From assembly GCA_035531375.1 (NCBI GenBank), contig DATKSZ010000149.1:903-64902 (forward strand): 64,000 nt of DNA, in the 5' to 3' direction. Of this stretch, positions 18,401 to 64,000 are shown one piece after another. This stretch comes from Terriglobales bacterium (GTDB lineage Bacteria; Acidobacteriota; Terriglobia; Terriglobales; SCQP01). Below the pieces are notes generated by a model. That model saw only the letters and a program-made list of their open reading frames with translations. It was not told the DNA's origin and searched no databases. Each line of letters opens with the position of its first letter. Position 1 is the first letter of the stretch. The translations under genes were made by a program, and so were the position numbers.

Positions 18401-19158
18401 AAGTGCGGCTGCAGCAGCCGCCCGTGGCTGAGCAGCCCGCTGTCGGGCACGCCGTAGACAAAGCTCTGGCAGAAGTCCCAGGCGGCGTGCATGCCCACCG
18501 CAAACCACAGGTCGCCGGTGCGCCACCAGGTGAAACAGAAGAAAAAGCCCAGCAGCCCCGCCGAGGTCACGCCCAAGGGGGTTTCCCCGGGGTTGCGCAG
18601 GTGGACCGCCCCAAACGCCAACGAGAGCAGCATCGCCGCCGGCCAAAAGCCCACCCCGGCCCGCAGCGTGAACAGCGCATAGCCGCGGTAGCGGAACTCC
18701 TCGAACAGCGCCACCAGCAAAAACGCCAGCCCCCACTCCAGCCCGTAGCGCAGCGTCTCCATCCCCGGCCGCGCCCCCAGCCCCAGGCGCAGGTCGCCGC
18801 TGGCCCCGATCAGCAGCAGCAGCGCCGTGAGCGATCCCGCCCCCCACAGCGCCCCCTCCCAGAAGTTCCGGCGCAAGGCGCCCCGCGCCGGCAGCCCGTA
18901 GGTTCCCAGCGGGCGCTGCTCCAGCAAGGTCATCGCCAGCGTGGCGATCGCCACCCACAGCAGGGCGAATCCCTCGCCCATCGCCACCGCGCCCGGCGTG
19001 ATCACCAGGAGGGCGGGCGAGCTCGGCGCCAGCTTGCCCACCCCGCCGCTGAGCAGGTCGGGAATGCCCACCAGGATGAACCCGAACACCGCCAGCCGCC
19101 AGCCCGCCCGCAGCCCGGCGAAGTCGCGCTGCTCGGGCGAAGAGAACCAAAGGCTCAT
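18235..19158 (-). CDS. CPBP-family intramembrane glutamic endopeptidase (CAAX protease/Abi-like), paralog 1
   Basis: EEFRYRGYA, FGAVHLRN, HAAWDF motifs. Multiple TM helices. Confidence 0.8.
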   Translation of the reverse strand: MSLWFSSPEQRDFAGLRAGWRLAVFGFILVGIPDLLSGGVGKLAPSSPALLVITPGAVAMGEGFALLWVAIATLAMTLLEQRPLGTYGLPARGALRRNFWEGALWGAGSLTALLLLIGASGDLRLGLGARPGMETLRYGLEWGLAFLLVALFEEFRYRGYALFTLRAGVGFWPAAMLLSLAFGAVHLRNPGETPLGVTSAGLLGFFFCFTWWRTGDLWFAVGMHAAWDFCQSFVYGVPDSGLLSHGRLLQPHFQGSSWITGGTVGPEGSVWVLVVVAMLWALFAKLHPQAPASAAMPSQRSTASSAA

Positions 19159-20039
19159 GGCGTGGGCGCCGCCGCCGCTTGTGCCGCCGGGTGGCGCCGG
19201 GCGAACAGCACGAACAGCGCGGCAATCACCAGGAAGACATACACGCTGCCCTCGGGCCCCACGCTGCCGCCGGTGATCCAGTGCGAGCCGCGGAAGCTGG
19301 GGTGCATCAGGCTGCCGGGCAGGGTCGAGCCGCTGTCGGGCACGCCGAACAGAAAGCTCTCGCTATAGTCCCAGGCGGCATGCAGCCCCACCGCAAACCA
19401 GAGGTTGCCGGTGCGGCGCACGGTCAAACAGAAAAACAGCCCAATCCCCGCCGCCGCGAGCGCGCCCAGGATGCTCTCGCCGCTGTTGCCCAGGTGCAGC
19501 GCGCCAAACAGCGCCGACAATCCCACCGCCGCCGGCCAGAAGTCCAGCCCGCTGGCCAGCGTCACCAGCGCGTAGCCGCGGAAGCAGAACTCCTCGAACA
19601 GGCCCACGCTGACAAACGCCACCGCCCACTCCAGCGCCGACCGCACTGTGCCCGCGCTGGCGGTCAAGGGGGCGAAGCGCAGGCCGCCGCTGGCCGCGAT
19701 CAGCCCCAGCAACAGGCTCAGCGCCACGAACCCCCAGAGCGCTCCCCGCCAAAACTCGCCCCGGAAGGCGGCGCGCCCGGGCAGGCCGAAGTCGCCGAAA
19801 GGCCGCTGCTCCAGCCGCGCCAGGATCAGCGTCACCAGCCCCACCCACAGCAGCGGCACCCCATCGCCCACCCAGTGCGGGAGCGCCCGCGCCCACCCCG
19901 CCCCGGCGGCGCTGCTCATCGCCAGTCCATAGCCCAGCAGCGGACCCGCCACCATCAGCACAAACAGCGCGAAGCGCCAGCCCGCCCGCAAACCGCCCAA
20001 GTCGCGCCGCTCCGCCGACGTGTACCAAAGGCTCGCCAT
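19155..20039 (-). CDS. CPBP-family intramembrane glutamic endopeptidase, paralog 2
   Basis: EEFCFRGYA, FGALHLGN, HAAWDY motifs. Collinear with paralog 1, 4-nt overlap. Confidence 0.8.
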   Translation of the reverse strand: MASLWYTSAERRDLGGLRAGWRFALFVLMVAGPLLGYGLAMSSAAGAGWARALPHWVGDGVPLLWVGLVTLILARLEQRPFGDFGLPGRAAFRGEFWRGALWGFVALSLLLGLIAASGGLRFAPLTASAGTVRSALEWAVAFVSVGLFEEFCFRGYALVTLASGLDFWPAAVGLSALFGALHLGNSGESILGALAAAGIGLFFCLTVRRTGNLWFAVGLHAAWDYSESFLFGVPDSGSTLPGSLMHPSFRGSHWITGGSVGPEGSVYVFLVIAALFVLFARRHPAAQAAAAPTP

Positions 20040-25950: not shown

Positions 25951-25956
25951 ACCCCT

Positions 25957-26249
25957 GGCGGGGGCCGCGCCGCTTTGCCTGCTGGCAAAAGCGGCGCGCA
26001 AGGCTGCGTGTAATTCCGCAGGGGCGCGCCAGTGGCGCGTCTGCGCCCCCGGGAAACGAATGCGGCGCGGCCCCAGCAATCCATTAACAAAACCGCGCAG
26101 CGCCGACTTGGGGCCAGGGGCCCCCAAGCCGGCGTGAGCATGCCGCCCCGCGCCGTTACAGCGGGGCGGCTCACAAGCGGGACGCGCGCCGCACCGGCCC
26201 GGCGCTGCTACAGCCGGGCCGGGCAGGCGCGCTGGAGTCCGCGCCCACT
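25957..26249 (+). repeat. mosaic hairpin repeat, copy B (long form)
   Basis: Same module order as copy G, without the H2 hairpin. Confidence 0.9.
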
Positions 26250-26296
26250 AACTTGTAGCAAAGTATGACCTTTCGCCTCCGCCCCGCATTTTTCTC

Positions 26297-26359: not shown

Positions 26360-27009
26360 ATGCGGATGGCAAAAGACTTGCTCTCTCTCTCTCTCTCTCT
26401 CTCCTAGTTCTCGCTAGCGCCGCGCAGGCGCAGGTTCTTGCGGCGACGGGCTACATTGCCCGCGGCACAGCCACGGTCATCGGCCCGCGCGGCAGCGAGA
26501 GCGGTGCGATCACGGTCGCGGCCTGGGGCGAGGGCCACTGCAAGGTCACGATCGCCCTGGGGGGGCCGGGGGCGCGGCGCCAGTACACGGCCATCGCCAA
26601 CGGCAACCACGCCAGCATCTCGGCCCCGGCGGGAATGGCGGCGGCGGCGCCGCTGCCGCTCGGCCCGCCCGTCGGCTGTGCGCTGCTGCCGCAGGGGCTG
26701 GCCTACGACAAACTGGCCGCGGGCGGCGCGGCCAGCCTCACTGCGGATCCAGCGACGGGGCGGCCGCTGGCGCTGGTTTGGACGGCCCTTGCGCCCGGCG
26801 GCGGCGAAGCCGCAACGCTGGCCTACGGGAACTACCAGGTTTCCGGAGGGCTGAGCTACCCAGCCACGGTCACCGAGAGCGTGGCTGGCCAGACGCGGCT
26901 TGCCATCCGCTTCACCTCGATTGAAACCCATAGCCTCGCCGAGAGCGACTTCGCGCTGCCGCCGCCGCCGAAGGGCTTTCCCACCCGGACCACGGGAGGT
27001 GGGCTATGA
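26360..27009 (+). CDS. secreted protein gene interrupted by a frame shift in the (CT)11 tract (as sequenced: leader in frame 2, mature part in frame 1; first in-frame ATG only at 26635)
   Basis: See the first finding. Frame 1 is open from 26269 to 27009 with protein-like, high-GC3 translation from 26404. ATGA overlap with the RHS start. Confidence 0.6.
26381..26403 (+). repeat. (CT)11 dinucleotide microsatellite
   Basis: Perfect CTCTCTCTCTCTCTCTCTCTCTC. The only such tract seen in the window. Confidence 0.95.
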
Positions 27010-30000
27010 AGGCGCGGGTACTTGCTGGCCTCTTGCTTCTGGCACTCGCGGCGCTTCCGGCGGCGGCGCAGGTCAACACCTCGGGCTGGGGCAGCTTCCA
27101 GTCGCTGCCCGAGGGCCGCGTGGACCGCGGCGACCTCGACCTGCACCTCGAGTTCCCGATCTTCAATCGGGCCACCGTAGGGCGGGCGCAGGTGAAGGCG
27201 GTGCTGGTCTACGACAGCCAGTTTTGGCAGCCGGTGAACGGCGCCTGGGCGCCCGAGACGGGCGGAGGCTGGTGGCTGCGCACCGCCGCTGGGCATCTGA
27301 GCGAGACGACCACGGTGGACAGCGGTGCCTGCGGCTGGACCGACGGCAGCGGCACCGACGACGGCAGCGGCACCATCACCAACCACGCCTTTGCCTTCAC
27401 CGAGCCCGATGGCACGGTGGCGCCCGCGGGCAGCTACATCTCGGTCTATGCGCCCAACAGGATCCATCCCGAGGGCTACTACAACGACTGCCCGCCCTCG
27501 GACACACTGCCCATCACGACCTTCATCGGCGACGGCAAGGGCTACCGCGTGGTGATTGACAGCTCGGGCGCGGGAACGGCCTGGGACGGCGACGGCGACA
27601 ACCTGACCGACGGCCTCACCGATCCCAACGGCAACTCCGTCACCGTCTCCGCCGGGGCCCTGAACGACCCGCTGGGAACGGCGCTCACCGTCAGCGGCTC
27701 GGGAACCCCCAGCTCGCCCATCGTCTACACCTACACCGGCACGGGCGCCACCCCGGTGAGCGTCACCGAGAACTTCGAGTCGGTGTATGCCACCGGCAGC
27801 TTCGGCTGCTACCCCGGCTGGAGCGGGTACCTGAACCTGCCGGAATCCATCACCTATCCCGACAGCTCCGAGTACGTCTTCAGCTACGACTCGGCCGGCA
27901 GACTGGCCACGCTCACGCTCCCCACGGGCGGGGTGATCAGCTACAGCCAATCGCTTTCGAACAACTGCTCCTACACCACCAGCACCCTCACCCGCTCGGA
28001 GTCGCTGGATTCCGGCAAGGAATGGCTCTGGTGGAATTCCAGCGGCTCCTCCAGCGGGCAGACCACCCAGACCAGTCCGGACAACAACCTTTCCGTCTTT
28101 GACTTCGACGCCACCGGCGCGCTGACCGAGACCGACGCCTACAGCGGGCCGTCGACCGGGACCATAGAGAGCGAGACCACCATCGCCACCGGCTACAGCG
28201 GCGGCACCACCAAGACGGCGGTGACCGAGCTGTTCGGCCCAACTCCGCTCTACTCCCAGCACCAACAGACGTTCGACCCCTTCGACAACCTCACCGCCAG
28301 CAGCGACACCGACTGGGGCACAACCTCGCCTGGGGGCGCCATCCTGCGCCAGACGACGGCGGTCTACGGCACCAGCGGCGAGGCGGAGGTGCTCGCCAGC
28401 CGGACGGTGAGCGACGGCTCCGGCAACGAAGTGTCAAAGTCCACATTCTCCTACGACAGCCACGCCAATCTGCTGAGCGAGAGCGATTACGTCACCGGCA
28501 GCACATACCTCACCAAAAGCTACGCCTACAACAGCAACGGCACGGTGCACACCGCGACCGACGCCAACGGGGGGGTGACCACCTACAGCTACACCTGCGG
28601 CAGCGGGTTTTACCCCAGCAGCGTGCAGAGCGCCATCGCCCCGGTGGCCACCAGCGCCACTTGGGACTGCGCCGGCGGCGTGCAGCTAACCTCCACCGAC
28701 CCCAACGGCCAAACCACCACCACCGCCTACGACGATCCAACGCACATGTGGCGGCCGACCTCGATCACCGCGCCCGACGGCAGCCAGACCACGATCAGCT
28801 ACATCTCGCCCAACCAGGTGGAGCGGGCGCAAACCTACAATTCCGGCCACTCCACCGACGATGTGCTGACCACGCTCGACGCTCTGGGGCGTCCCGTCCT
28901 CAGCCAGCGCCGGCAATCGCCCGTCAGCGGGAGCTTTGATACGGTCGAGACTTGGTACGACGCCATGGACAGGCCGGTCCAGGCGAGCATGCCCTTCACC
29001 TCGACCGCCGGCGTCGGCGGTGGCGCCGCCTTCACCACCACCACCTACGACGAGTTCTCGCGTCCGCTGGTGGTGATCGACGGCGGCGGGGGAAAGGTGA
29101 GCTATGCCTACAGCCAGAACGACACCCTGATCACGGCCGGGCCGGCGCCGAGCGGGGAGAACACCAAGAGCAAGCAGGAGCAGTTCGACGGCTTGGGAAG
29201 GCTGCAGTCGGTGTGCGAGATCAACACGCTGGGGGGCGACGGGCCCTGCGGACAGACGGTGGCGCAGAGCGGGTATCTTACGGTCTATGCCCGCAACGCC
29301 CTGGGCCAAATCACCCAGGTCACCCAGAACGCGCAGACCACGCCCACCCAGACGCGGACTTTCAGCTTTGACCAGCTCGGCCGGCTGACGGCGGAGGCCA
29401 ACCCGGAGAGCGGGACCACCGCCTACACCTTCGACAGCGATGCGACCTGCGGGATCTCGGGAGGCGACTTGGTGAAGCGCGTGGACGCCAACGGCAACAC
29501 CACCTGCTACGCCTACGATTTGCTCCACCGGGTAACGCAGATCCGCTATCCGAGCGGCGATCCGAACCCCACGCCGGACAAGTATTTTGCCTACGACGGC
29601 GCCAGCCTGGACAACACCAGCATGGCCAACGTGGCGGGCAGGCTGGCCGAGGCCTACACCGGCACGCCGACGGCCAAGATCACCGACCTGGGCTTCAGCT
29701 ACCCCAATCCGGGCGCGGACGAAGAGGACGTCTACCAGTCCTCGCCCAACTCCGGCGGCTGGACCATCGCCATCGCCCAGCATTACGCCAACGGCGCGGT
29801 TTCGACGCTGACCTTGCCCACGGGCGTGCCGGCCATCACCTACAGCCTGGACGGCGAGGGCCGCCCGGTCGGCGCCATGGCGGGCACCGCGACGCTGGCG
29901 AAGAACGGCGTCTACTCGCCCGAGGGGCTGACCAGCCTGACCCTGGGCTCCAACGACAGCGACGGCTACCAGTACGACGCCAGTACCGGCCGCATGGAGC

Positions 30001-31631
30001 AGTACCAGTTCACGGTGGGCGGCGCGACCGACACCGGGACGCTCACTTGGAACGCCAACGGCTCGCTGGGGACGCTGGGGATCACCGACAACATCCCGGG
30101 CGCCGACGACACCCAGTCCTGCACCTACACCCACGACGACCTGGGCCGCATTGCCTCGGCGGCATGCACCGGCGGGGACAACTGGAGCCAGACCTTTTCC
30201 TACGATTCGCTGGGCAATGTACTGAAGAGCGGGACGCAATCGTTCCAGCCCAACTATGGGATCAACAACCGCATCTCGACCAACATCAACTTCACGGCCC
30301 ACTACGACAACGACGGCAATTTGCTCGACGACCCGGTGACGCCGGCCACCGGAGTCAACGCCTTCGACGCCGAGGGGCACGCGGTGACACTGGAGGGGAT
30401 CGGGGTGACGTATGACGCGCTGGGAAGGGCGGTGGAGGCGGCGGAGCCGGGCGGGACGATCGAGTTCCTGTATGGCCCGGGCGGGGGTAAACTGGCGGTG
30501 ATGAACGGGCAGACCCTGGCGGCCGCCTACATTCCGCTGCCGGGCGGGGGGACGGCGGTCTATCATGGTGCGACGCTGGCCTACTACCGGCATGCCGATT
30601 GGCTGGGCAGCTCGCGGCTGGCCTCGACCCCCGGCCGGACGCTCTATTCGGCCACCGCCTACGCGCCGTATGGGGAGCCGTACGAGGAGAGCGGGACGAT
30701 CGACCGCAATTTCACCGGCCAGAACCAGGACATCGTCGGCGGCCAGTACGACTTCCTCATGCGGGTGTACAACCCCATCCAAGGCCGTTGGTGGACGCCC
30801 GACCCCGCCGGCCTGGCGGCGGTGGACCCCAATGACCCGCAGAGCTGGAATCGCTACGCCTATGTCGGCGGCACCCCCCTGGAGGCCACCGATCCGCTCG
30901 GGCTGGACCCGTGCCCGCCGGGGAGCAGCGTGCAGTGGTGCTTTAGCGGGAGCTCGGTGCCTGGGCTGGGGCAGCAGAATACGCCGCCGGGCATGGGCAG
31001 CGGCGGCCTCGACCTGCTCATCGCTGCGCTGCAGCAGGAGCTCAGTCTCTTTTGGCCCGGCAGCGCCCAGCCTGCCATTGTCGTGCCCGGCAGCGGGAGT
31101 GGCGAGCCAACTAGCCCTGCGACGACGACTTCAGGAAAGCAAAGCAACACGCCGTGCAGCCACGGGATTGGCGTAGGCGCAATGAGTGGGGGCGCTGCCG
31201 AGGCGGGCGCTGGGGCCGCCGGCGCTGGAGTACAGGGCTCTGTCGGCGGCGGCCTGTTTTTCAACCCGCAAAATGACCTTAGCATTGGCGCGCTGGCCGC
31301 CGGCGGTGCCGTGGCCTATGCCGGGGGCGCTGTCTCCGGGGTGCCGCAGCAATACCCCAAGACTGCTCTTATCCTTGGGGCGTTCGCCGGCGCTGGCGGT
31401 GGCGTCTTCCTCACGAATGCGGGGTCAGTGTCCGAACTCGCGGGTCCATTTCTGACCCTCAGCGCGAATCTTGCGGTTTTTGGAATCAAGGGCAGCCTCC
31501 AGCTTGCCGTTGATCGCCACTGGACGGCCATGGCAACGTTTAGTCTCGGCGCCGGCCCGCCAGGGGCCGATTTTTCCGCATACACGACCGACACCGTGAC
31601 CACGGAGCCAGGGTGCTCCTGGGTGCCGTGA
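27006..31631 (+). CDS. RHS/YD-repeat polymorphic toxin with Sec leader and glycine-rich C-terminal domain
   Basis: GGGAGG Shine-Dalgarno sequence. Leader MKARVLAGLLLLALAALPAAAQ. Numerous YD repeats. RHS core end YNPIQGRWWTPDP..NRYAYVGGTPLEATDPLGL, followed by a 241-aa tail. Confidence 0.9.
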   Translation: MKARVLAGLLLLALAALPAAAQVNTSGWGSFQSLPEGRVDRGDLDLHLEFPIFNRATVGRAQVKAVLVYDSQFWQPVNGAWAPETGGGWWLRTAAGHLSETTTVDSGACGWTDGSGTDDGSGTITNHAFAFTEPDGTVAPAGSYISVYAPNRIHPEGYYNDCPPSDTLPITTFIGDGKGYRVVIDSSGAGTAWDGDGDNLTDGLTDPNGNSVTVSAGALNDPLGTALTVSGSGTPSSPIVYTYTGTGATPVSVTENFESVYATGSFGCYPGWSGYLNLPESITYPDSSEYVFSYDSAGRLATLTLPTGGVISYSQSLSNNCSYTTSTLTRSESLDSGKEWLWWNSSGSSSGQTTQTSPDNNLSVFDFDATGALTETDAYSGPSTGTIESETTIATGYSGGTTKTAVTELFGPTPLYSQHQQTFDPFDNLTASSDTDWGTTSPGGAILRQTTAVYGTSGEAEVLASRTVSDGSGNEVSKSTFSYDSHANLLSESDYVTGSTYLTKSYAYNSNGTVHTATDANGGVTTYSYTCGSGFYPSSVQSAIAPVATSATWDCAGGVQLTSTDPNGQTTTTAYDDPTHMWRPTSITAPDGSQTTISYISPNQVERAQTYNSGHSTDDVLTTLDALGRPVLSQRRQSPVSGSFDTVETWYDAMDRPVQASMPFTSTAGVGGGAAFTTTTYDEFSRPLVVIDGGGGKVSYAYSQNDTLITAGPAPSGENTKSKQEQFDGLGRLQSVCEINTLGGDGPCGQTVAQSGYLTVYARNALGQITQVTQNAQTTPTQTRTFSFDQLGRLTAEANPESGTTAYTFDSDATCGISGGDLVKRVDANGNTTCYAYDLLHRVTQIRYPSGDPNPTPDKYFAYDGASLDNTSMANVAGRLAEAYTGTPTAKITDLGFSYPNPGADEEDVYQSSPNSGGWTIAIAQHYANGAVSTLTLPTGVPAITYSLDGEGRPVGAMAGTATLAKNGVYSPEGLTSLTLGSNDSDGYQYDASTGRMEQYQFTVGGATDTGTLTWNANGSLGTLGITDNIPGADDTQSCTYTHDDLGRIASAACTGGDNWSQTFSYDSLGNVLKSGTQSFQPNYGINNRISTNINFTAHYDNDGNLLDDPVTPATGVNAFDAEGHAVTLEGIGVTYDALGRAVEAAEPGGTIEFLYGPGGGKLAVMNGQTLAAAYIPLPGGGTAVYHGATLAYYRHADWLGSSRLASTPGRTLYSATAYAPYGEPYEESGTIDRNFTGQNQDIVGGQYDFLMRVYNPIQGRWWTPDPAGLAAVDPNDPQSWNRYAYVGGTPLEATDPLGLDPCPPGSSVQWCFSGSSVPGLGQQNTPPGMGSGGLDLLIAALQQELSLFWPGSAQPAIVVPGSGSGEPTSPATTTSGKQSNTPCSHGIGVGAMSGGAAEAGAGAAGAGVQGSVGGGLFFNPQNDLSIGALAAGGAVAYAGGAVSGVPQQYPKTALILGAFAGAGGGVFLTNAGSVSELAGPFLTLSANLAVFGIKGSLQLAVDRHWTAMATFSLGAGPPGADFSAYTTDTVTTEPGCSWVP

Positions 31632-31894
31632 TGACAGGGCTCCCGCAGCAAATGTTTGAGGTTTTCCGGCCGATCGGCGTCCTGTTGGCGTACTCTTTCT
31701 GGCTGCTCGTACTGGCGAGGGCGCCTATTGTCGAGAAGGCGGAGAGATGGATTGAGCGGTCGGGCTTGGGCAGGTGTTCGAACTGGCTGCCGCAGGATTT
31801 CCGGACCGCAACTAGCCGCGGCTGGCGGTGGGTTGCTCTGGTTATCACGATTGGAATTTATGTGTCGCTGGTTTTGGCGCCCTGGGGCCTGTAG
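31631..31894 (+). CDS. small 2-TM membrane protein, candidate cognate immunity
   Basis: ATG shares one nucleotide with the RHS stop (TGATG). Predicted helices IGVLLAYSFWLLVLA and WVALVITIGIYVSLVLAPW. AT-richer sequence. An alternative GTG start lies at 31613. Confidence 0.55.
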   Translation: MTGLPQQMFEVFRPIGVLLAYSFWLLVLARAPIVEKAERWIERSGLGRCSNWLPQDFRTATSRGWRWVALVITIGIYVSLVLAPWGL

Positions 31895-31927: not shown

Positions 31928-32233
31928 ATGACGCGAGTTGACTTGCTTGTAGATGCCGCAATCCCCTTTCTGATCCCGCTGGGGCCGATTTGGATCTGTT
32001 ACGTAATCTTCCGGCTGGTGAATGGAGGGGCGCCCATGGGGCACCGTCAGAGATTCGTTACGGCGGCTTGGGCGTTCTTTTTCTTCGAATTCGGCATATT
32101 GGGCGCGCTTGGCTCCCTTTGGAATATCCAATTTCGAATTTCTATTTCGCTCGTGCTCTGCACCTTGCTGGCCTTGGTGGTCGGGCGCTGGTGGGCGGGG
32201 CGCGGGCAAGCGCGGAATGATTTGGGCGGCTGA
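31928..32233 (+). CDS. small 3-TM membrane protein (second immunity-like ORF)
   Basis: ATG start. Three hydrophobic segments. Same AT-richer patch. Confidence 0.5.
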   Translation: MTRVDLLVDAAIPFLIPLGPIWICYVIFRLVNGGAPMGHRQRFVTAAWAFFFFEFGILGALGSLWNIQFRISISLVLCTLLALVVGRWWAGRGQARNDLGG

Positions 32234-32384: not shown

Positions 32385-32585
32385 TCGCGGGGGTCGCGCC
32401 GCTTTGCCTGTCGGCAAAATCGGCGCGAAAGGCCGCGAAATTCCGCAGGGCGGCCCGCCCCCGGGAAGCGACTTCGGCGCGGCCCCTGCGAGGCGCAGCG
32501 CCGGCTTGGGGCTCCGGGGCCCCCAAGCCGGCGTGAGCACAAGCGGGACGCGCGGCGCAGCCGCGCAGGGGCCCGCGCCCACCTT
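32385..32585 (+). repeat. mosaic hairpin repeat, copy C
   Basis: Head module (H1) plus H5 hairpin plus short tail. Confidence 0.9.
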
Positions 32586-32604
32586 CGCTGCCGCGTCCAT
32601 CGCC

Positions 32605-34632: not shown

Positions 34633-34919
34633 TCGCGGCGGTCGCCCCGCTTTGCCTGCTGGCAAAATCGGCGCGAAAGCCCGAAATTCCGCAGGGGCAG
34701 ACGCGCCCGTGGCGCGTCTGCGCCCCCGGGAAACGGCGGCCCCAGCAGCCCAGCAGCGAAGCCGCGCAGCGCCGGCTTGGGGCCATGGGGCCCCCGAGTC
34801 GGCGCGAGCATGCCGCCCCGCGCCGTTGCAGCGGGGCGGCACACAAGCGGGACGCGCGGCGCACCGGCCCGGCGCTGCTCCAGCCGGGCCGGGCAGGCGC
34901 GCTGGGGCCCGCGCCCACC
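34633..34919 (+). repeat. mosaic hairpin repeat, copy D (long form)
   Basis: Its last base abuts the TAA stop of the FG-GAP gene. Confidence 0.9.
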
Positions 34920-37900
34920 TTAGTTCAGAATCGTCAGCGTCAAGTTCAGCGCCGGCAGCGAGCCGCCGGTCATGTTGGCGCCGATGGCGATGGGCACTGC
35001 CCCCGCCGGCGGCGGCGTCCCGCCCCCGCCCAGGTTCGGCGCCGCGCTGGAGCCGCAGCCCACCAGTCCGCCGCCCAGGGCGAGGCCCAGCACCACCGCC
35101 AGGGCCCAGCCGCCGCGCCGCCCGCGGCGCTTGCGCCACCCCAGCGGCAGCAGTCCCAGCAGCGCCAGCGGCCACGCCATCGCCAGGTCGAATCCGCCCG
35201 GCGGCGGCAGCCCGGCCACGGTGGCGTCCACCGTGATGGTGAGCACGGTCGAGGCCGAGTCGCCCGCGCCGGCCAAGGTTGTCGGGATGGGATTGGGCGA
35301 GAAGCCGCAGTGCACATAGGCCGGCAGCGTGCTGGGGCAGGTGAAGGTGATGGGCGCGGAGAAGCCGTTGGGCGTGGTCACGGTGAGGGTGGTGGTGACG
35401 CTCTCGCCGCCCGAGGCCGTCAGCGACGAGGGGTTGGCGCTGATCAGGTACTGCACCGTGGCGTCTTGCGGCGTGGTGACGTTGGCGCTCTCGAAGTTGC
35501 TGTCGCCCGAGTAGGAAGCGGTGATGGCGTAGGGCGTGGCGCTGGGCGCCAGCACCGGCGACAGCACCCCGGCGTTGGAGCTCAGCGCCACCGCGCCGCC
35601 GGGGATGGCAATGCCGTTGCTGTAGAAGGTGATCGTGCCCGAGGGGTTGGGCGCGTTCCCCAGCGTCGCCGTGGTCGAGACCGTGCCGGTCAAGACCAGC
35701 GGCGTGATGCTGGCGCCGCTGGCCACGCCCCCGCTCACCGCCAGCGTCAGCGTGGTCGGCGCCTTGCCCAGGGTGTAGGAAGTGGCGTCGGCGCCCTGGC
35801 TGCTTTGGAAGTTGCCGCTGGCGTCGCTGTAGCAGGCGGTGACGGTGAGGCCGCTGCCGGCCCCCACCACCACGCCGGAGACGCTGGCGGCGCCGTTCTG
35901 CACCGTGGCCGTGGCCACGTAGGCGGAGACCGAGCAGGCCGCCCCCGCCGTCCCCACGATAAAGCCCACGCTGCCCTCGGCCACCGGCGCGCTGGCGTTG
36001 TTGCTGTTCGCCACCGTGGCGCTGAAGCTCACCGGGCCGGGATAGGTGTTGGTCGCCTCGGTGAAGCTGGCGCTGACCGCGGTCGGCGCCGCCGTCACCT
36101 GCAGCGGCACGGTGCCGGCGGTGGTGCTGGCGGCGAAGCTGCCGCTGCCGCTGTAGCTGGCCGAGACCAGGTAGCTGCCCACCGGAATGGCGCCGCTGGC
36201 GCTGGCCGTGCCGCCCTGCACCGAGGCCGCCATCAGTTGCACCGGGCTGGCACAGGCCCCGGTCGCGGGACACAGGCTGAAGGTCACCGACCCGCCCGCC
36301 ACCGATCCCCCCGTCCAGGTCACCGCCGCCGTCAGCGTGCCCGGGCCGGGATAGACCGCCGTCGCCGCCAGTCCGGTGACGGTGATCGTGGTCGATGTCG
36401 CGCTGCTCGAGGCCACCCCGTTGTTGACCAGCAGCGCCGCCCCCTGGCTGGTCGAGACCAGCACGCCGGGGCTGCCCCCCACCGGCGCGGTTCCCGCCGC
36501 CGCCAGGTTCGAATCCACCCCGGCCACCGTCCCCACCGTCGGCGGCAGCAGTTGTCCCTTCACGTTTTGATAGGCGTAGGCGACGCCATTCGCCAGCGCC
36601 ACCACGTCCGGCAGCGCCGAGCCGTAGAACTTGCCGGTGGCCAGCACCGGGTCGTAGCTGACGCAGCCGGCGTAGTTGCCCCCGGCGTTGCAGTTGGGCC
36701 CGGGAATGCTGTCGCCGGCGTAGAGCGGCTGCGCCGGCTGCGGGGTGAAGCTGCCCGCCTGCCCCGCGGTGTTGAGCAGCACCTGCACCCCCTGGCTGCC
36801 CGCCACCACGAGGTCGGGCAGGCCGTCGCCGTTGATGTCGGCCGAGGCCACCGCGCTGAAGTTGGGGTAGGGCGTTCCCACCGCCTGGCTCAACAGCGTG
36901 GGGTTGGTCGGCGCCACCAGCATGCCGCCGTTGTTTTGCAAAATCCCCACCGCCGCGCCGCCCTGAGCGGCGGTGTTGCCGCTGCACAACTCGCCGCCAT
37001 CCACCAGCGCCAGGTCGGGCTGCTTGCCCTGGAAAAAGAAGTCGGCCGCCCCCGCCACCGGGTTCACCACCGGCGGCGCCACGTACACCGGGTTGGCGAA
37101 GGTGCCATCGCCCTTGCCCAGGAACACATACACCGCCCCCAGCGAATCCCCCGTGCCGTCGTTGTTGCAGTTGTTGCCGTTTTCCGGGAGCACCAGCACC
37201 AGGTCGGCCTTGCCATCGCCGTTGACGTCGAAGGCGAACATCTGCGGCTGCGCCCCCGCCCCGGGCGTGCTGGGCCGGTAGTTGTAGCCGGGATAGCCGG
37301 GGGCCGCGGAGAGGTTGTAGCTATAGGTCGGGGTGAAGGTCCCGTCGCCGTTCGCGCCCATCACCACCACCGTGTCCGCGCCAAACAGCGCCAAGTCGCT
37401 GTTGCTCGAGGGCCCGAAGTTGCCCGCCACCTCGGCATCGGCGCCGCTGTAGCTCAGGCTGGCATTGGCGACCGTGGTCACCGGCACAGTGGTGGTGGTG
37501 GGCAGCGCCCCGCTGGCGTTGGCCAGGTAGACGGTGAAGTTGGGCTCGCCCGTCGCCAAGTCGCCGCCCAGCACCGCCAAGTCGGTCTTGCCGTCGCCGT
37601 TGAAGTCGCCGGTGGCGAAGCCGGGCGGAAAGTTGTACCCATTGCGGCCGGTGCCGGGATAGAGCGTTGCCGTGCCGCCCACCGCCCCCGCCGCGTTCAG
37701 CACATAGACGTCAATCGAGCGCTCGTCGGTGAAGCTTTGGAAAATAGGAAACGAGCCGGCGTGGACGCCGGCGCCGATGACCACGTAGCCTGGGCTGGCC
37801 AGGTTGGGCGAGTAACCGCTGGCCAGCGCCTGCTCCGGCGGGCTCAGCGCCCCGCTCGCCTGCCAGGTGCCGTTGAACGTGCCCCCGCTGCCGCTGAAGT

Positions 37901-38930
37901 TGGAGTAGGAGCTGACCTCGAGGCTGTTGGACGCGTCCAGGTAGGCGAACTCGATGCTGCTGGTTCCGCTGCTGTTCAGCACCGTCAGCGCCGAGCCCAG
38001 CGGCGATCCGCCCTGCGGCACCAGCGAGACCGCCGCGAAGGTGCCGCTGCCGTCGCTCTGGAAGGCCTGGATGGCCTGGGAGGTGTTGGTCCAGAACAGC
38101 GCCGGCAGGTTGTCGAATTCCCCCGCCGCCAGCCCGCCGCTGGTCCCGTTCAGCGAGATCTGCTGGCTGGGGGCGGGGCCGAAGGTCCCGCTGCCCTGGT
38201 TGGGGAAGATGTACAGGGCGTCGAAGGAGATGGGGCCGCACACCAGCGCCAAGTCCACCCGCCCGTTGGAGGGGCTGGTGAAGCTGCCGCCCACGATGGC
38301 GCTGCAGCGGTAGCCCGTCTGCGCCGCCGGGTAGGCGGTGCCCGCCCCGCTGGGCAGGCCGCCGCCGTTGGGCGCCAGGAAAACGGTGAACGCGCCGGCG
38401 CCGTTGGGAATGGCGGCGAGGTCGCTGAAGCCGTTGCCGTCCAGGTCGGCCACCGCCAGGGCGGCGAAGCCGCCCGTCGCCGTGATGGCGCTGGCGCTCA
38501 GGCTGAAGTTGCCGCTGCCGTCGTTGGTCAGATACACAATGCCGCTGTTGGTCGCCACCGCCAAGTCGAAGGTGGTGGCGCTGCGGAAGCCGCCGCCGGC
38601 GATGGCGTTGCCCCGCACCCCCGCTCCCAGCGACACCACCGCCGTGCTGGCAAAGCTGCCGTCGGCCTGGCCCTGGAAGATATCCACCTCGTCGCCGGCG
38701 CCGTTGGGGTTCTCCAGCAGCACGGCGAAGTCGAGCAGGCCGTTGCTGGCGTTGAACACGCCGGTGGCCACCGCCTTGGGGATGGTTCCCGCCGGCGCCT
38801 CGTAGGCGGCGGCGCCGCCCAACTGCAGCGGCGTCGCGTTCTGCGCCCCCGCGGCGGCGGCGAGGAGCAGCAGCGCGCCCACCAGCCGGATCACCCTCGC
38901 GTCCACCCCACGCCGGGACAAGTGTGTCAT
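34920..38930 (-). CDS. FG-GAP/VCBS-repeat plus Ig-like-domain surface protein (1336 aa)
   Basis: Start MTHLSRRGVDARVIRLVGALLLLAAAAGA (leader). Repeats DLDGNGFSDLA, DFNGDGKTDLA, DVNGDGKADLV, DINGDGLPDLV. Then about 5 Ig-like modules and an unusual double hydrophobic C-terminus. Confidence 0.85.
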   Translation of the reverse strand: MTHLSRRGVDARVIRLVGALLLLAAAAGAQNATPLQLGGAAAYEAPAGTIPKAVATGVFNASNGLLDFAVLLENPNGAGDEVDIFQGQADGSFASTAVVSLGAGVRGNAIAGGGFRSATTFDLAVATNSGIVYLTNDGSGNFSLSASAITATGGFAALAVADLDGNGFSDLAAIPNGAGAFTVFLAPNGGGLPSGAGTAYPAAQTGYRCSAIVGGSFTSPSNGRVDLALVCGPISFDALYIFPNQGSGTFGPAPSQQISLNGTSGGLAAGEFDNLPALFWTNTSQAIQAFQSDGSGTFAAVSLVPQGGSPLGSALTVLNSSGTSSIEFAYLDASNSLEVSSYSNFSGSGGTFNGTWQASGALSPPEQALASGYSPNLASPGYVVIGAGVHAGSFPIFQSFTDERSIDVYVLNAAGAVGGTATLYPGTGRNGYNFPPGFATGDFNGDGKTDLAVLGGDLATGEPNFTVYLANASGALPTTTTVPVTTVANASLSYSGADAEVAGNFGPSSNSDLALFGADTVVVMGANGDGTFTPTYSYNLSAAPGYPGYNYRPSTPGAGAQPQMFAFDVNGDGKADLVLVLPENGNNCNNDGTGDSLGAVYVFLGKGDGTFANPVYVAPPVVNPVAGAADFFFQGKQPDLALVDGGELCSGNTAAQGGAAVGILQNNGGMLVAPTNPTLLSQAVGTPYPNFSAVASADINGDGLPDLVVAGSQGVQVLLNTAGQAGSFTPQPAQPLYAGDSIPGPNCNAGGNYAGCVSYDPVLATGKFYGSALPDVVALANGVAYAYQNVKGQLLPPTVGTVAGVDSNLAAAGTAPVGGSPGVLVSTSQGAALLVNNGVASSSATSTTITVTGLAATAVYPGPGTLTAAVTWTGGSVAGGSVTFSLCPATGACASPVQLMAASVQGGTASASGAIPVGSYLVSASYSGSGSFAASTTAGTVPLQVTAAPTAVSASFTEATNTYPGPVSFSATVANSNNASAPVAEGSVGFIVGTAGAACSVSAYVATATVQNGAASVSGVVVGAGSGLTVTACYSDASGNFQSSQGADATSYTLGKAPTTLTLAVSGGVASGASITPLVLTGTVSTTATLGNAPNPSGTITFYSNGIAIPGGAVALSSNAGVLSPVLAPSATPYAITASYSGDSNFESANVTTPQDATVQYLISANPSSLTASGGESVTTTLTVTTPNGFSAPITFTCPSTLPAYVHCGFSPNPIPTTLAGAGDSASTVLTITVDATVAGLPPPGGFDLAMAWPLALLGLLPLGWRKRRGRRGGWALAVVLGLALGGGLVGCGSSAAPNLGGGGTPPPAGAVPIAIGANMTGGSLPALNLTLTILN

Positions 38931-39000
38931 GGTAACTCTTGTCGTGAGAGAGTCTCTGCCGGGCAGTATACACCCGCGGCGGCGCGCCGGGCGGCGGTGG

Positions 39001-39780
39001 TTACGCGCCGGCGCGCGCGGCCCGGTCCGTTCGCCGCCGGCAGCGCGCCCGCAGCCGCCGCAGGTTGAGCGCAAACTCGAGATAGTCGCGCCCCCCCAGC
39101 TTGGAATTTCCATACTGCCGCTGCCCAAAGCGAATGGGCAGCTCCACCACCGGCGCGCCGCTGAGCAGCAGCTCGGTGATCAGCGACGACTGGAAGGCGT
39201 AGCCGCGGGTCGCCAGCTTGTCCACCCGGCACCCTTGCAGGCAGCGCGCCAGCGCCGCCGCGTCGAGGCAGCGGAAGCCGGAGGTGTAGTCGTAGAGGTG
39301 GGGCAGGCCGGCGAGGCGGTGGATCAGCCAGTTGCCCACCCGGCTGGTGGCGCGCCGCCGCCAGGAGAATGCCGGGGTCGCCCCCCCGGGCGCGAAGCGC
39401 GAGCCCACCACCGCCGCCACCGCCGGCCCGCAGGCCTCGATCAGCGCCGGCAGCATCGCCGGATCGTGCTGCCAGTCGCCGTCCATCTGCACCAAAAGGC
39501 TGGGCGCCAGCGTCGCCAGCGCCTGGGCGAAGCCGCGCTGATAGGCCACCCCCAGCCCCTGCTTGCGCCCGCGCACCACCTGCATCCGGGGAAACTCGCG
39601 CTGCAAGCCCTCCAACAGCGCCGCTGAGTCGTCGCCCCCGCCCGGGCCCTCGTCGTTGACCACCACCAGCCAAAGCTCGTGGCTCAAGATGCGCGCCTGC
39701 TGCGCGAAGATGGCGGGCACCAGCGTGGGCAGATGGTGCGCCTCGCAGTAGGTGGGCAGGACGACGCAGCAGCGCGGCAT
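39001..39780 (-). CDS. GT2 glycosyltransferase (polyprenyl-phosphate sugar transferase-like)
   Basis: Start MPRCCVVLPTYCE. VVNDEGPG, DGDWQHDP (DxD-type) and SGFRC motifs. Confidence 0.85.
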   Translation of the reverse strand: MPRCCVVLPTYCEAHHLPTLVPAIFAQQARILSHELWLVVVNDEGPGGGDDSAALLEGLQREFPRMQVVRGRKQGLGVAYQRGFAQALATLAPSLLVQMDGDWQHDPAMLPALIEACGPAVAAVVGSRFAPGGATPAFSWRRRATSRVGNWLIHRLAGLPHLYDYTSGFRCLDAAALARCLQGCRVDKLATRGYAFQSSLITELLLSGAPVVELPIRFGQRQYGNSKLGGRDYLEFALNLRRLRARCRRRTDRAARAGA

Positions 39781-42001: not shown

Positions 42002-43171
42002 ATGGGCGCGCCCTTCCATTGGGTCTTCCACACTCCTTTGGCCGAGCAGAGCGACGATTTCCTGCTCTTGGCGGGCACCCTGGCGCGCGACTTCCAGGCC
42101 GAGCTGAGCGCCGCCCCCGCCCCAGCGGGGCGCAGCGCCGATTTGGGGCCACGGGGCCCCCAAATCGGCGCAAGCACAAGCGGGACGCGCGCCGCAGGCG
42201 CGCTGGGGCCCGCGCCAACCATCGGCTGGGTGCTGCGCGCCGATTTTGCCGGCGACGAGATGGAGGCGGAGGAGCGCGGCCGCGCCTTTTGGCTGGAACT
42301 CCACAGCCGCTGCCTCGACGCCAACCTCGCCATGGAACTGGTCGAGGGCTTCGAGCCCGCCCAAGGCTGGCGTCCCGCCTCCGGCCTGGCCCCCGCGCCG
42401 GAAGCCTCCGCCGCCGCCCTGCCAGCGGCGGCCGCCGCGCTGGCCCCGCCCGCGCCGGCGGCGCTCGCCCGCCAGCGCCCGCCCATCCCCGCCCAGACCG
42501 TCTACGACCTGCTGCGCGCCGACGACCCCGACCTCGACCGCAATCTGGACGAGACCATCGCCTGGATCGAAGCCGCCGGCCTACCCGTCATCAACCTGCT
42601 CAGCTATCTCGACCTGCCGCTGTTTCGCGGCTACGCCGCCGAGCACCCCGACGAGCGCGACCAGAACCTCTTCTTGCACATGCTGCACACCTGGGCCTGC
42701 TTCCGCCGCTGGGGCGCGGTGGGCGCGGTGTTGCCGCCGGCGCTGGCCCAGGCCTTCGCCGACCCGCGCTACCTGCGGTTGAACACCACCCAGTTCCGCT
42801 CCCCCGCCCCCGCCCTCTGCCTGCAACTCGCCGACTGGTCCGAGCCGGTGCGCCCGGTGGCCGGCGGCGCCCCGCAATGGGCCAAGGAGATCTACCTCAC
42901 CCACCTGGACCCCCCCACCCCCGCCGACGACCGCGAGCTCACCCTGATGATCGTCAGCTACGACGAGCGCGGCGAGTTTGGCTTCATTCCCTTGGAGATC
43001 CCGCTCAGCCTGCCCGGCGTGGGCGAGTCCATCGCGGCTTTTTTCGCCCCCAGCGCCGGCGACGAGGAGCTGGGCGCCAACACCGAAGACCTGCATCGCC
43101 TCACCGTGCTGGCCGCCACCTATTGCCTCTATGCCACCGCCCGCGACCCCGCCCTCTACCTCGCCGGCTGA
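42002..43171 (+). CDS. hypothetical protein carrying an in-frame repeat-module insertion
   Basis: ATG start. Protein-like sequence on both sides of the repeat. No recognisable family. Confidence 0.55.
   Translation: MGAPFHWVFHTPLAEQSDDFLLLAGTLARDFQAELSAAPAPAGRSADLGPRGPQIGASTSGTRAAGALGPAPTIGWVLRADFAGDEMEAEERGRAFWLELHSRCLDANLAMELVEGFEPAQGWRPASGLAPAPEASAAALPAAAAALAPPAPAALARQRPPIPAQTVYDLLRADDPDLDRNLDETIAWIEAAGLPVINLLSYLDLPLFRGYAAEHPDERDQNLFLHMLHTWACFRRWGAVGAVLPPALAQAFADPRYLRLNTTQFRSPAPALCLQLADWSEPVRPVAGGAPQWAKEIYLTHLDPPTPADDRELTLMIVSYDERGEFGFIPLEIPLSLPGVGESIAAFFAPSAGDEELGANTEDLHRLTVLAATYCLYATARDPALYLAG
42120..42222 (+). repeat. mosaic repeat, H5 plus tail modules (copy E), inside a CDS
   Basis: GCGCAGCGCCGATTTGGGGCCACGGGGCCCCCAAATCGGCGC...GGGGCCCGCGCCAACC. 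Confidence 0.8.
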
Positions 43172-44522
43172 GGCCGGCGCCGCCGCGCCCGACCACGCCG
43201 CCACCGCCGGCGAAGCGCAGCGCCGGCTTGGGGCCGCGGGGCCCCCAAGCCGGCGTGAGCACAAGCGGGACGCGCGGCGCAGCCGCGCTGGGGCCCGCGC
43301 CAACCATTGGGAGGCCGCCTTCTTCGCCCTGCTCGCCGCCGCCGCCGCCGCGCTCGCCCTGTTGCGCCCCGACAAGGCGATTGATTTCCACGTCTACGTG
43401 GAGAACGCCCGCCACTACTTTCTGGCCGGCGCCGCCATGTACGGCCCCCACAGCGGCACCGGCTGGGCGGGCGGGGTGTACCGCTATCCCCCCATCTTCT
43501 TGGATCTGTTCCGCCCGCTCTCGCTGCTGCCGCTGCGGTGGGGCGCCGCGCTCTGGGCGGTGGGCAAGCTGGCCCTCGGCGGCGCCCTGGCGGTGCGCCT
43601 GCGCCGCCGCTGGCATCTGGCCAGCATCCTCCCCTTCTGGCCGGCGCTGCTGCTGGTGGCCGCTTACTTCATCCAGGAGTTACGCTACGGCAACGCCCAG
43701 TTCTATATCGTTGCCCTGGTGGTGCTCGCCTTCCTGGCCGACGATCCGCGCTGGGGCGGCTTCTGGCTGGGCTTCGCCGCCGCCCTCAAGGTCTGGCCGC
43801 TGTTCTTCTTCCCCTGCCTGGTCCCGCGCCGGCGCCTGCGCATGCTCGGCGCCGCCGTCGCCAGCGGCGTGGGCTGGACGCTGCTGCCGGTGCTCTGGCG
43901 CGGCTGGACGGCGCAGGGGCGGCTGCTCGCGCAATGGCTGGCGCAGGAGCGCTCCATCGCCGCCACCAGCGCCGCCCGCGGCGAGCTCTGGTACCCCGGC
44001 CAGTCGCTGCACGACGTCATGGCCCGCTACCTCGGCGTGTTGAACTACTCCCGCCTCGCCGACGCCCGCTACGTGCAGGTGGCCTGGGCCCACTGCGCCC
44101 CCGCCACGGTCGAGCGCCTGTGGTGGGCCGTGGTCGCGGTCTTGCTGGTGGCGATGTTTGGGTGGCTGTGGCGTGCCCAGGGCAGCGAGGACGGGGTGGT
44201 GGCGCTGTTGTTCTGCGGCGTGGTGGTGTTCGAGCCCCACGTCCACCGCCTCATCCTCGAGACCCTGCTGTGGTCGGCGCTGTGGCTGGCCTCCGAGCGG
44301 GCGCAGGGCCGCCTCGCCGGCTGGCGCCGCGCCCTGTTCTGGCTGGCGGTGGCGGCGGCGGTGGCGCAGCCCTTGGTGCCCGGCGCCGCCCGCCAGCGCT
44401 GGCTGCAGGTCTACGGCGTGGACTTCTTTTTCGTGGTGGTGCCGCTCACCGCCGTAGTGGCGCGGCAGGCCTGGCTAGGGCATATCGCCGATAGGCAGGC
44501 GCGCGCGGCGGCGGCAGACTGA
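43131..44522 (+). CDS. polytopic membrane glycosyltransferase (DUF2029/GT87-like); start uncertain
   Basis: About 10 TM helices; YRYPPIF and NAQFY motifs. No ATG/GTG/TTG between repeat F and the first TM helix. The nearest in-frame ATG is 43131, upstream of the repeat. Confidence 0.6.
   Translation: MPPPATPPSTSPAEAGAAAPDHAATAGEAQRRLGAAGPPSRREHKRDARRSRAGARANHWEAAFFALLAAAAAALALLRPDKAIDFHVYVENARHYFLAGAAMYGPHSGTGWAGGVYRYPPIFLDLFRPLSLLPLRWGAALWAVGKLALGGALAVRLRRRWHLASILPFWPALLLVAAYFIQELRYGNAQFYIVALVVLAFLADDPRWGGFWLGFAAALKVWPLFFFPCLVPRRRLRMLGAAVASGVGWTLLPVLWRGWTAQGRLLAQWLAQERSIAATSAARGELWYPGQSLHDVMARYLGVLNYSRLADARYVQVAWAHCAPATVERLWWAVVAVLLVAMFGWLWRAQGSEDGVVALLFCGVVVFEPHVHRLILETLLWSALWLASERAQGRLAGWRRALFWLAVAAAVAQPLVPGAARQRWLQVYGVDFFFVVVPLTAVVARQAWLGHIADRQARAAAAD
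43215..43306 (+). repeat. mosaic repeat, H5 plus tail modules (copy F)
   Basis: Near-identical to the 3' half of copy C. Confidence 0.85.
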
Positions 44523-47162: not shown

Positions 47163-47496
47163 TCGCGGGGGTCGCGCCGCTTTGCCTGCTGGCAAAATCG
47201 GCGCGAAAGGCTGCGAACCTGGGTCCCCTGAGCCCGCCTCGGGTTCTGGGGTGGTCGTAATTCCGCAGGCGCAGACGCGCCAGTGGCGCGTCTGCGCCCC
47301 CGGGAAGCGAATTCGGCGCGGCCCCCCTGGCAGTGAAGCAGCGCAGCGCCGACTTGGGGCCATGGGGCCCCCGAGTCGGCGCGAGCATGCCGCCCCGCGC
47401 ATCTACAGCGGGGCGGCTCACAAGCGGGACGCGCGCCGCACCGGCCCGGCGCGGCTACAGCCGGGCCGGGCCGGCGCGCTGGGGCCCGCGCCCACC
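47163..47496 (+). repeat. mosaic hairpin repeat, copy G (longest, all modules)
   Basis: H1, H2, H3, H5, H6, outer tail hairpin with nested H8, then GGGGCCCGCGCCCACC. Confidence 0.9.
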
Positions 47497-47533
47497 AAAG
47501 TGTCTGCGGCCCGCCTGGGCCGCGGGAGGATCC

Positions 47534-54607: not shown

Positions 54608-54654
54608 CGTGCGATAGCCAAACACGATGGCTCTATTATAGTCCCCTCGCCGCC

Positions 54655-54773
54655 GCGCGAGCATGCCGCCCCGCGCTGTTACAGCGGGGCGGCTCACAAG
54701 CGGGCCGCGCGCCGCACCGGCCTGGCGCTTGCTACAGCCGGGCCGGGCAGGCGCGCTGGGGCCCGCGCCCACC
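54655..54773 (+). repeat. mosaic repeat, H6 plus nested tail modules (copy H)
   Basis: GAGCATGCCGCCCCGCG...GGGGCCCGCGCCCACC. Lies between two minus-strand genes, yet in plus orientation. Confidence 0.85.
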
Positions 54774-54794
54774 AAGGCGCGCCCGCGCCCGTCT

Positions 54795-63834: not shown

Positions 63835-64000
63835 TCGCGGGGGTCGCGCCGCTTTGCCAGCTGGCAAAACCGGCGCGAAAGGCTGCGAACCGGGGTCCCC
63901 AGAACCCGCTTCGGGTTCTGGGGTGGTCGTAATTCCGCAGGCGCAGACGCGCCAGTGGCGCGTCTGCGCCCCCGGGAAGCGAATTCGGCGCGGCCCCAGC
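63835..64000 (+). repeat. mosaic hairpin repeat, copy I (truncated by window end)
   Basis: H1, H2 and H3 modules nearly identical to copy G. Confidence 0.9.

Follow-up and report, generated by a model that had tools for sequence, protein, structure and literature searches.

The stretch of DNA considered here (positions 903 to 64,902 of contig DATKSZ010000149.1 in the Terriglobales bacterium assembly GCA_035531375.1; 64,000 nucleotides (nt), referred to below as the window) carries on its forward strand an RHS polymorphic-toxin gene at 27006-31631, whose product of 1541 amino acids (aa) ends in a 241-aa tail rich in glycine and alanine. The tail is probably an RHS-borne, divergent β-barrel ionophore of the Ntox25 class that would depolarize the membrane of a target cell, with a small open reading frame (ORF) encoding two predicted transmembrane (TM) helices as its immunity gene; this reading is held with moderate confidence. 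An earlier note had taken the tail for a pore-forming or membrane-depolarizing glycine-zipper module. The non-enzymatic, membrane-directed part of that description agrees with the profile similarity to Ntox25 and with the adjacent TM ORF, whereas the helical zipper structure is not borne out by the AlphaFold2 models.

Predicted fold of the tip and its probable link to Ntox25

Translation of 30906-31631 reproduces exactly the 241 residues that follow the DPLGL motif, including four Gly/Ala-rich stretches, the Cys-containing start and the spacer rich in Pro, Ser and Thr, all as first described. In the models the tail divides into a disordered linker of ~80 aa and a domain of ~155 aa. This domain, the toxin tip (31146-31628, forward strand; structured core 31161-31601), is predicted by AlphaFold2 from a 35-sequence alignment to be all-β, with a predicted local distance difference test score (pLDDT) of 93.5 and a predicted TM-score (pTM) of 0.85. 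Nine strands are modeled at residues 8-22, 25-40, 44-59, (62-66), 75-90, 100-111, 114-122, 128-136 and 140-152, together with one four-residue helix (95-98), giving the order of four long hairpin strands, helix and four strands; the strands alternate between a small-hydrophobic face (Ala/Val/Leu) and a face of Gly and aromatic or polar residues. A run on the full tail repeats the fold, with residues 86-232 at pLDDT of at least 94, and no TM helices occur in the AlphaFold2 models of the tip. Foldseek returned nothing from the PDB at E ≤ 1e-3; the best matches were the barrels of Rhodococcus equi VapB, VapG and VapD (E 7e-3, probability 1.0), with TM-scores of 0.41-0.44 by query and 0.55-0.58 by target and a root-mean-square deviation of 6-7.6 Å. 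Outer-membrane barrels of the OmpA/Ail type were rejected as a model for the tip, as their Foldseek TM-scores reached only 0.17-0.22, and barrels of the GFP type were poor matches too.

The tip founds a large uncatalogued family, for which Pfam, NCBIfam and the PDB have no entry. When 1.84 billion cluster representatives (clusters at 50% identity) were scanned exhaustively by HMMER with the window tail as query, 346 of them matched at E ≤ 1e-3, and 74 of these passed E ≤ 1e-10; the alignments cover tail residues ~80-238. PDB sequences queried with the family profile gave nothing at E ≤ 10. Word-indexed homology searches saturate on Gly/Ala words; with these the tail retrieved only the protein P0001, by way of its linker, and the family profile retrieved five proteins. 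The domain nearly always occupies the extreme C-terminus; all eight of the long members scanned are RHS proteins, the end of an RHS core lies upstream of the domain in most of the shorter members, and orphan domain cassettes are found within RHS arrays. Members come from soil and aquatic metagenomes and from one Phycisphaerales metagenome-assembled genome (MAG); a locus search with the single tip gave one genome locus.

In an alignment of 115 domains, the near-invariant positions are Gly residues, Pro67, Asn91-Ala92, Leu98, Gly100-Pro-Phe102, Thr148 and Thr150; Asn, Gln and Ser positions are conserved as well, and ~7% of the residues of the family domains are charged. A pair of Cys flanks the domain (in the window, codons 31155-31157 and 31614-31616): 62 domains have both residues, 31 have neither, 22 have the C-terminal one only and none has the N-terminal one only. 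In the full-tail model, bridge residues are assigned at 83 and 238, each next to one of these Cys. Given this co-occurrence and the model, a Cys84-Cys237 disulfide probably clamps the domain shut, and such a predicted bond implies action in an oxidizing compartment, either outside the cell or in the target periplasm.

Ntox25 (PF15530) was the only toxin family to surface in Pfam scans of family members. Ntox25 tips of CdiA proteins, formerly predicted to be RNases, dissipate membrane potential and are predicted by AlphaFold2 to form tapered β-barrels (PMC11630599); the EC93 toxin CdiA-CT2 depolarizes target cells, as seen with DiBAC4(3), an effect that is blocked by the cognate CdiI and requires AcrB (PMC8190604). 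The best Pfam match was that of P0029 (E 0.0089; 16.3 bits, below the cut-off of 25), in which aa 191-257 align co-linearly with profile positions 80-143 of 168. Direct comparison was made with four Ntox25 domains, taken from cdiA-2 of the EC93 plasmid pCP127 (WP_061892950.1), Pantoea, Salmonella and Cronobacter, the last of which bears the annotation 'polymorphic toxin type 25'. Aligning 114 family sequences with these four, hhalign gave a probability of 58.8%, E 9.4e-5 and a score of 32.7 over 64 columns (family 81-151 against Ntox25 50-117); 300 column shuffles scored 10.5 on average (standard deviation 2.0, maximum 20.2), and a reversed alignment scored 22.3. A hidden Markov model (HMM) built from the four Ntox25 sequences scored P0042 at 20.2 bits over 69 positions (best of 500 shuffles, 6.3), P0039 at 13.2 bits (shuffle maximum 6.4) and P0041 at 12.9 bits (shuffle maximum 10.6). 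P0042, which matches the window tail at E 3.8e-13, aligns to Ntox25 through ...LGA-x-AGAG-x-x-F... YS-x-N-x-G-x-G ... S-F-x-F-GP-x-IG-x-SG. Judged from these sequence comparisons, the family is quite likely related to Ntox25, distantly and below threshold, across at least the C-terminal half.

Four plasmid CdiA tips that were first gathered as Ntox25 candidates proved to be something else, and a tblastn search of plasmids with one family member found nothing. As a separate observation, the CdiA tips at positions 1601-2879 of loci L042 and L043 (E. coli plasmids NZ_AP027218.1 and NZ_CP073590.1) have the same entry domain as the EC93 Ntox25 toxin, YGQAVASWNQYA..NNLTPEQ, and end in a different Gly-rich domain that has no Pfam match and is followed by an overlapping 86-aa ORF.

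Carrier gene, cassette and downstream membrane ORFs

The carrier is an RHS/YD-repeat polymorphic toxin, in which a repeat shell and a core ending in DPxGL precede a variable tip. Scans of the 1541-aa protein place RHS repeats in six stretches (PF05593, E 9e-25) and YD repeats alongside them (TIGR01643, E 1e-10), so that the ORF is marked by RHS_repeat, YD_repeat and Rhs_assc_core features; its public annotation is TEN_YD-shell, and it is present in identical form on metagenome contigs. The Rhs-associated core spans aa 1219-1300 (30660-30905, forward strand; TIGR03696, E 4e-15, profile 1-76 of 76) and ends in the DPLGL autoproteolysis motif at aa 1296-1300 (30891-30905), within the sequence ...ATDPLGL|DPC. 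In the RHS family, encapsulation of the tail and aspartyl autoproteolysis after DPLGL are established. A Sec signal peptide, MKARVLAGLLLLALAALPAAAQ, is predicted from the protein sequence at the N-terminus (27006-27071, forward strand), similar peptides begin several other full-length family members, and the Pfam scan of the window protein detected no PAAR, VgrG or other delivery domain. Just upstream, a 124-aa ORF (26635-27009, forward strand) runs into the RHS start codon by an ATGA overlap; Pfam has no match for it, and it could be an accessory gene, a chaperone gene or a mis-called ORF.

The toxin does not extend over the whole of the tail; the first ~64 residues are a linker found also in an RHS module that bears a different tip. 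These residues are 88% identical at the aa level to P0001, a C-terminal RHS fragment that occurs as an orphan in either the same genome or a close relative of it; the identity is confined to the linker, after which P0001 continues into a tip of its own. At the DNA level, identity to the P0001 module (86%) ends at window position 31099, and in a further two RHS modules of that genome the identity breaks off at the DPLGL codons (30905/30909). The linker or pre-toxin segment as a whole (tail aa 1-80; 30906-31145, forward strand) contains two Cys, the spacer and an amphipathic helix at aa 33-47, which is the one helix modeled there; its pLDDT is 44-64 in the full-tail model, and it has no Pfam match. 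The guanine-cytosine (GC) content falls from ~70% to 55-60% between ~31250 and ~32300, a region that covers the tip and two small ORFs behind it; together with the break in identity at 31099, this is typical of a swapped toxin-immunity cassette.

The P0001 module itself is found at L001:6001-7319 (ENA ERZ25039477 contig_6581) and in L002. Its tip is also Gly-rich and is followed by a 67-aa ORF with two TM segments, in an array that stands after a full RHS gene and beside an IS110 transposase and HicAB; the window lineage seems to stock several membrane-type tips. The RHS cassette of the window is flanked by two copies of a GC-rich intergenic repeat of ~190-300 bp, resembling repetitive extragenic palindromes or miniature inverted-repeat transposable elements (REP/MITE-like), of which the window holds at least nine dispersed copies (~1319-1505, 25956-26254, 32385-32590, 34633-34926, 42112-42227, 43197-43312, 47163-47503, 54644-54780 and 63835-63997). 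The same element recurs at 7576-7662 of locus L001 in the related genome.

The putative immunity gene (31613-31894, forward strand) overlaps the RHS stop codon and encodes 93 aa from a GTG at 31613, with GGAG 5 nt upstream; an alternative ATG at 31631, in a TGATG overlap, would give 87 aa. The 93-aa product has two predicted TM helices (Kyte-Doolittle segments 16-34 and 70-88) and a basic loop. A second small membrane ORF follows in the same low-GC cassette (31928-32233, forward strand; 101 aa, three predicted TM segments); it is called in two public annotations and has only a weak, sub-threshold match to DUF3397, and it may be a second or an orphan immunity gene.

Comparable arrangements recur elsewhere in the family. 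Of 31 loci bearing the domain (28 from metagenomes, retrieved with a narrower sub-alignment, and in addition the window, L003 and L005), a small ORF for a TM protein comes directly after the toxin in 24, at a gap of ~-34 to +186 nt. The commonest of these belong to a conserved two-TM family of 71-80 aa; other types are a two-TM family of 100-115 aa and a four-TM protein of 174 aa, and frameshifted copies occur in some related loci (L009, L021-L024). This recurrence is in keeping with the immunity role first suggested for the membrane-embedded ORF behind the window toxin. In locus L018 (903-1997), a further Gly-rich 139-aa ORF and two ~115-aa two-TM ORFs lie 3' of the toxin-immunity pair, and these may represent a second, different Gly-rich toxin with its own immunity genes.

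Proposed action and competing explanations

In the mechanism proposed here, the RHS protein would be exported through its Sec signal peptide, and the RHS shell would encapsulate the C-terminal tail and cleave itself after DPLGL. The released 241-aa fragment would consist of the flexible linker, reused with other tips in the lineage, and a low-charge β-barrel rich in Gly, Ala, Ser and Thr; clamped by its disulfide, the barrel would reach the target cytoplasmic membrane from the periplasmic side and dissipate the membrane potential. It may form a channel of its own; alternatively it may work through an inner-membrane protein, which for the E. coli Ntox25 toxin is AcrB. Protection of the producer would come from the 93-aa inner-membrane protein, which has two predicted TM helices and is translationally coupled to the toxin; it would neutralize the toxin in or at the membrane.

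Several points weigh against this reading. The window tail has no match of its own to Ntox25 in Pfam at E ≤ 10, and the four-sequence Ntox25 HMM scores the window tip at -0.7 bits, so that the link is transitive via other members of the family. The hhalign probability is only 59% and covers only the C-terminal ~70 residues, and Gly-rich periodic composition inflates such scores, as the reversed control at 22.3 illustrates. The FGPY signature of Ntox25 (Zhang et al. 2012) is replaced by F-x-TNA and a short helix; in the HMM alignment FGPY stands opposite F-F-TNA, and the GPF motif of the family comes ~10 residues later. On the immunity side, the window ORF at 31631-31894 was tried as a member of the common two-TM family and scored ~2 bits with its HMM, which is not significant; it has no homologues beyond itself in a set of 5.8 billion proteins and is unlike the multi-TM CdiI proteins of 150-160 aa that accompany Ntox25; the case for its immunity role is thus one of position, coupling and architecture. 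The toxin function of the family is read from sequences and models, and no route across the outer membrane of the producer or the target was identified.

The alternative that survives best, although unlikely, is that the β domain binds a specific component of the envelope (an inner-membrane transporter, for instance, or a lipid such as lipid II) and that it kills because this target is blocked or wrongly opened, in a manner comparable to toxins of the lactococcin-972 type or receptor-dependent bacteriocins; the TM immunity protein would then shield the target. The requirement of the E. coli Ntox25 toxin for AcrB fits this idea, as that toxin may, in the view of its authors, open the proton path of AcrB instead of forming a pore (PMC8190604). 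So does the nearest solved fold, since a role in ligand or lipid binding has been considered for the Vap barrel, whose glycine 'bald' surface binds detergent (PMC4118825). The immunity proteins, at 71-97 aa, are also very small. Conservation in the family marks no identifiable binding site, however, and the occurrence of the domain in distant phyla, from soil metagenomes to the Phycisphaerales MAG, argues against a single protein receptor. The very low charge and the Gly/Ala faces are also more like those of a protein that partitions into membranes.

It is very unlikely that the tail inserts as TM α-helices packed through GxxxG motifs to form a helical pore like those of Tse5-CT, the type-10 ionophores such as CdiA-CT(EC93) or the glycine-zipper bacteriocins. 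Composition speaks for this model at first sight, as Gly makes up 18.7%, Ala 14.1% and Ser 10.4% of the tail, charged residues account for ~7% of it, and several stretches are moderately hydrophobic; the known RHS (Tse5) and contact-dependent growth inhibition (CDI) ionophores are helical, with immunity proteins that have two TM segments or are hydrophobic (PMC9637101, PMC11630599). The tail had been called GxxxG-dense, but strict GxxxG occurs 8 times against 8.1 expected from 2000 shuffles of the tail, and the density thus reflects mostly composition. The broader [GAS]xxx[GAS] pattern occurs 47 times in the whole tail against 43.8 expected (z 0.85); a modest enrichment of small-xxx-small (z 2.5) is confined to the last 161 aa, where the i/i+2/i+4 periodicity of β-strands explains it equally well. 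The hydrophobic stretches, which had been considered membrane-like, peak at a Kyte-Doolittle value of 1.53 over 19 residues, below the TM-helix threshold of 1.6, and Pfam glycine-zipper families had zero matches in sets of 35 and 50 family members (E ≤ 1-10), which cover ~60 members. An AlphaFold2 model describes a soluble state at best, and the membrane state could differ; even so, both runs gave an all-β fold with very high confidence, the conserved alternation and tight turns of two to three residues suit hairpins, and homology points to the β-barrel Ntox25 class. For Gly-rich polymorphic-toxin tails of the 'glycine-zipper' kind in general, structure prediction is needed before a TM-helix reading is adopted.

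A cryptic enzyme, for example a cell-wall or lipid hydrolase whose fold and active site are uncatalogued, is highly improbable. Many RHS tips are enzymatic, Ntox25 itself was once predicted to be an RNase (PMC3482391), and the family conserves an acidic residue (E/D19, 82% of the 115 domains) along with Asn, Gln and Thr. The RNase prediction has been superseded by the depolarization data (PMC11630599), however, and the 115 aligned domains contain no conserved His, Lys, Arg or catalytic-type Cys and no constellation of the Ser-His-Asp type. The window tail has no Pfam or NCBIfam match at E ≤ 1 and none in Pfam at E ≤ 10, and neither these databases, nor the PDB sequences, nor the Foldseek search of the predicted model yielded an enzyme family or an enzymatic toxin fold, as the initial reading of the motifs had anticipated; the immunity proteins, moreover, are integral to the membrane and not soluble. 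That the tail is no toxin at all, but a structural, adhesive or decayed appendage with unrelated or spurious ORFs behind it, is scarcely credible: the lack of homologues for the downstream ORFs of the window and the frameshifted copies elsewhere would allow it, but it is opposed by the position after the DPLGL cleavage site, the orphan cassettes within RHS arrays, the strong conservation over 346 clusters, the recurrent neighboring TM ORF and the low-GC cassette structure.

Related toxins and other features of the window

In comparing the family to Ntox25, both are the C-terminal cargo of polymorphic toxins and are Gly-rich, low-charge and predicted to be all-β barrels; an integral-membrane immunity gene, a putative one in the family, overlaps the toxin 3' end, and the C-terminal ~65-70 residues follow the pattern YS-x-N-x-G-x-G ... 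G-x-W/V ... S-F/I-x-x-GP-x-x-G-x-S. Unlike Ntox25, which is carried by CdiA, the family is carried by RHS proteins with Sec signals. Its domain is ~155 aa long against ~125 aa, the N-terminal half has much longer Gly/Ala hairpins, F-x-TNA with a short helix and QL-x-GPF take the place of FGPY, and a terminal Cys pair is added. The immunity proteins, two-TM proteins of 71-97 aa, are unrelated to the multi-TM CdiI proteins, and the family is derived from soil and aquatic metagenomes, not from Enterobacteria.

The family is probably also a relative of the class of Tse4 (PA2774) from Pseudomonas aeruginosa, to judge by published descriptions. Tse4 is a membrane-depolarizing antibacterial effector that forms ion-selective channels (PMC12169545), and it has the same history of misreading, having been considered an α-helical glycine-zipper toxin before it was predicted to be an Ntox25-like β-barrel (PMC11630599); it differs as a stand-alone, Hcp-dependent type VI secretion system (T6SS) effector rather than an RHS tip. 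With Tse5-CT of P. aeruginosa RhsP1, the window toxin has in common the delivery logic of a non-enzymatic, depolarizing C-terminal toxin encapsulated by RHS, and Tsi5, an inner-membrane protein with two predicted TM segments (PMC9637101), is of the same immunity type as the window candidate. For Tse5-CT, however, TM and amphipathic helices are predicted, and its delivery is by PAAR, VgrG and the T6SS, where the window protein has a Sec signal and no PAAR; with the family profile, no sequence similarity to the Tse5 entries of the PDB sequence set came up.

β-Barrel ionophore toxins such as Ntox25 and Tse4 have just recently been recognized, hitherto from the CDI and T6SS systems of Proteobacteria. 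The present family would extend the class to a large and diverse group on Sec-exported RHS proteins of soil and aquatic bacteria, with features of its own in the long hairpins of Gly and Ala, the Cys clamp at the ends and the very small two-TM immunity proteins, and it would supply many natural toxin-immunity pairs with which to study depolarization by soluble β-barrels and blocking by two helices.

The Vap proteins (VapA/B/D/G of Rhodococcus/Prescottella equi; PF05526) are the best match among solved structures, a moderate one at the level of fold only. Their barrel has four strands, one short helix and four strands (PMC4118825), and the likeness derives from this order of elements and from the Foldseek scores; the Vap fold is an eight-stranded closed barrel of β1-2-3-8-5-6-7-4 topology with the helix between β4 and β5. 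Further points of resemblance are strands rich in glycine, apolar surfaces of the 'bald' type and amide residues conserved at the surface, and VapA is membrane-active and neutralizes vacuole pH (PMC10100859). Homology at the sequence level was tried and rejected, as hhalign gave a probability of 0.2% against sets of 4 and 10 Vap sequences; Ntox25 compared with Vap likewise gave 0.2%, and Pfam found no Vap match among the family members scanned. The strands in the first half of the family domain are much longer (15-16 residues) than those of Vap, and the Vap virulence factors, which are secreted as stand-alone proteins, have no immunity genes.

A speculative and rather unlikely extension is that the RHS family belongs with Ntox25 and Tse4 to a single ancient superfamily, made up of glycine-rich 'bald' β-barrel ionophores, and that this superfamily has its fold, and possibly its origin, in common with Vap. 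If so, the long-unexplained neutralization of phagosome pH by VapA would be the same membrane-permeabilizing activity as that of the interbacterial toxins, and the two-TM immunity proteins would give a handle on how barrels can be neutralized within the membrane. The resemblance to the Vap fold is in itself a testable lead on a long-standing question of R. equi pathogenesis. A Vap-like gene (L038:1243-1752) on plasmid NZ_CP034366.1 of Pantoea sp. CCBC3-3-1 lies between genes annotated as phage tail and baseplate, neighbors which hint that proteobacterial Vap homologues may be cargo of contractile injection systems.

Two other features of the window were noted. At 18275-20034, two adjacent segments, one of ~300 nt and one of ~90 nt, each recur at a distance of ~890 nt with 72-77% identity, which suggests tandem paralogous genes. 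Near the RHS locus, the reverse strand encodes at 34920-39128 a secreted-looking protein of 1402 aa with FG-GAP/VCBS-like and Ig-like repeats.

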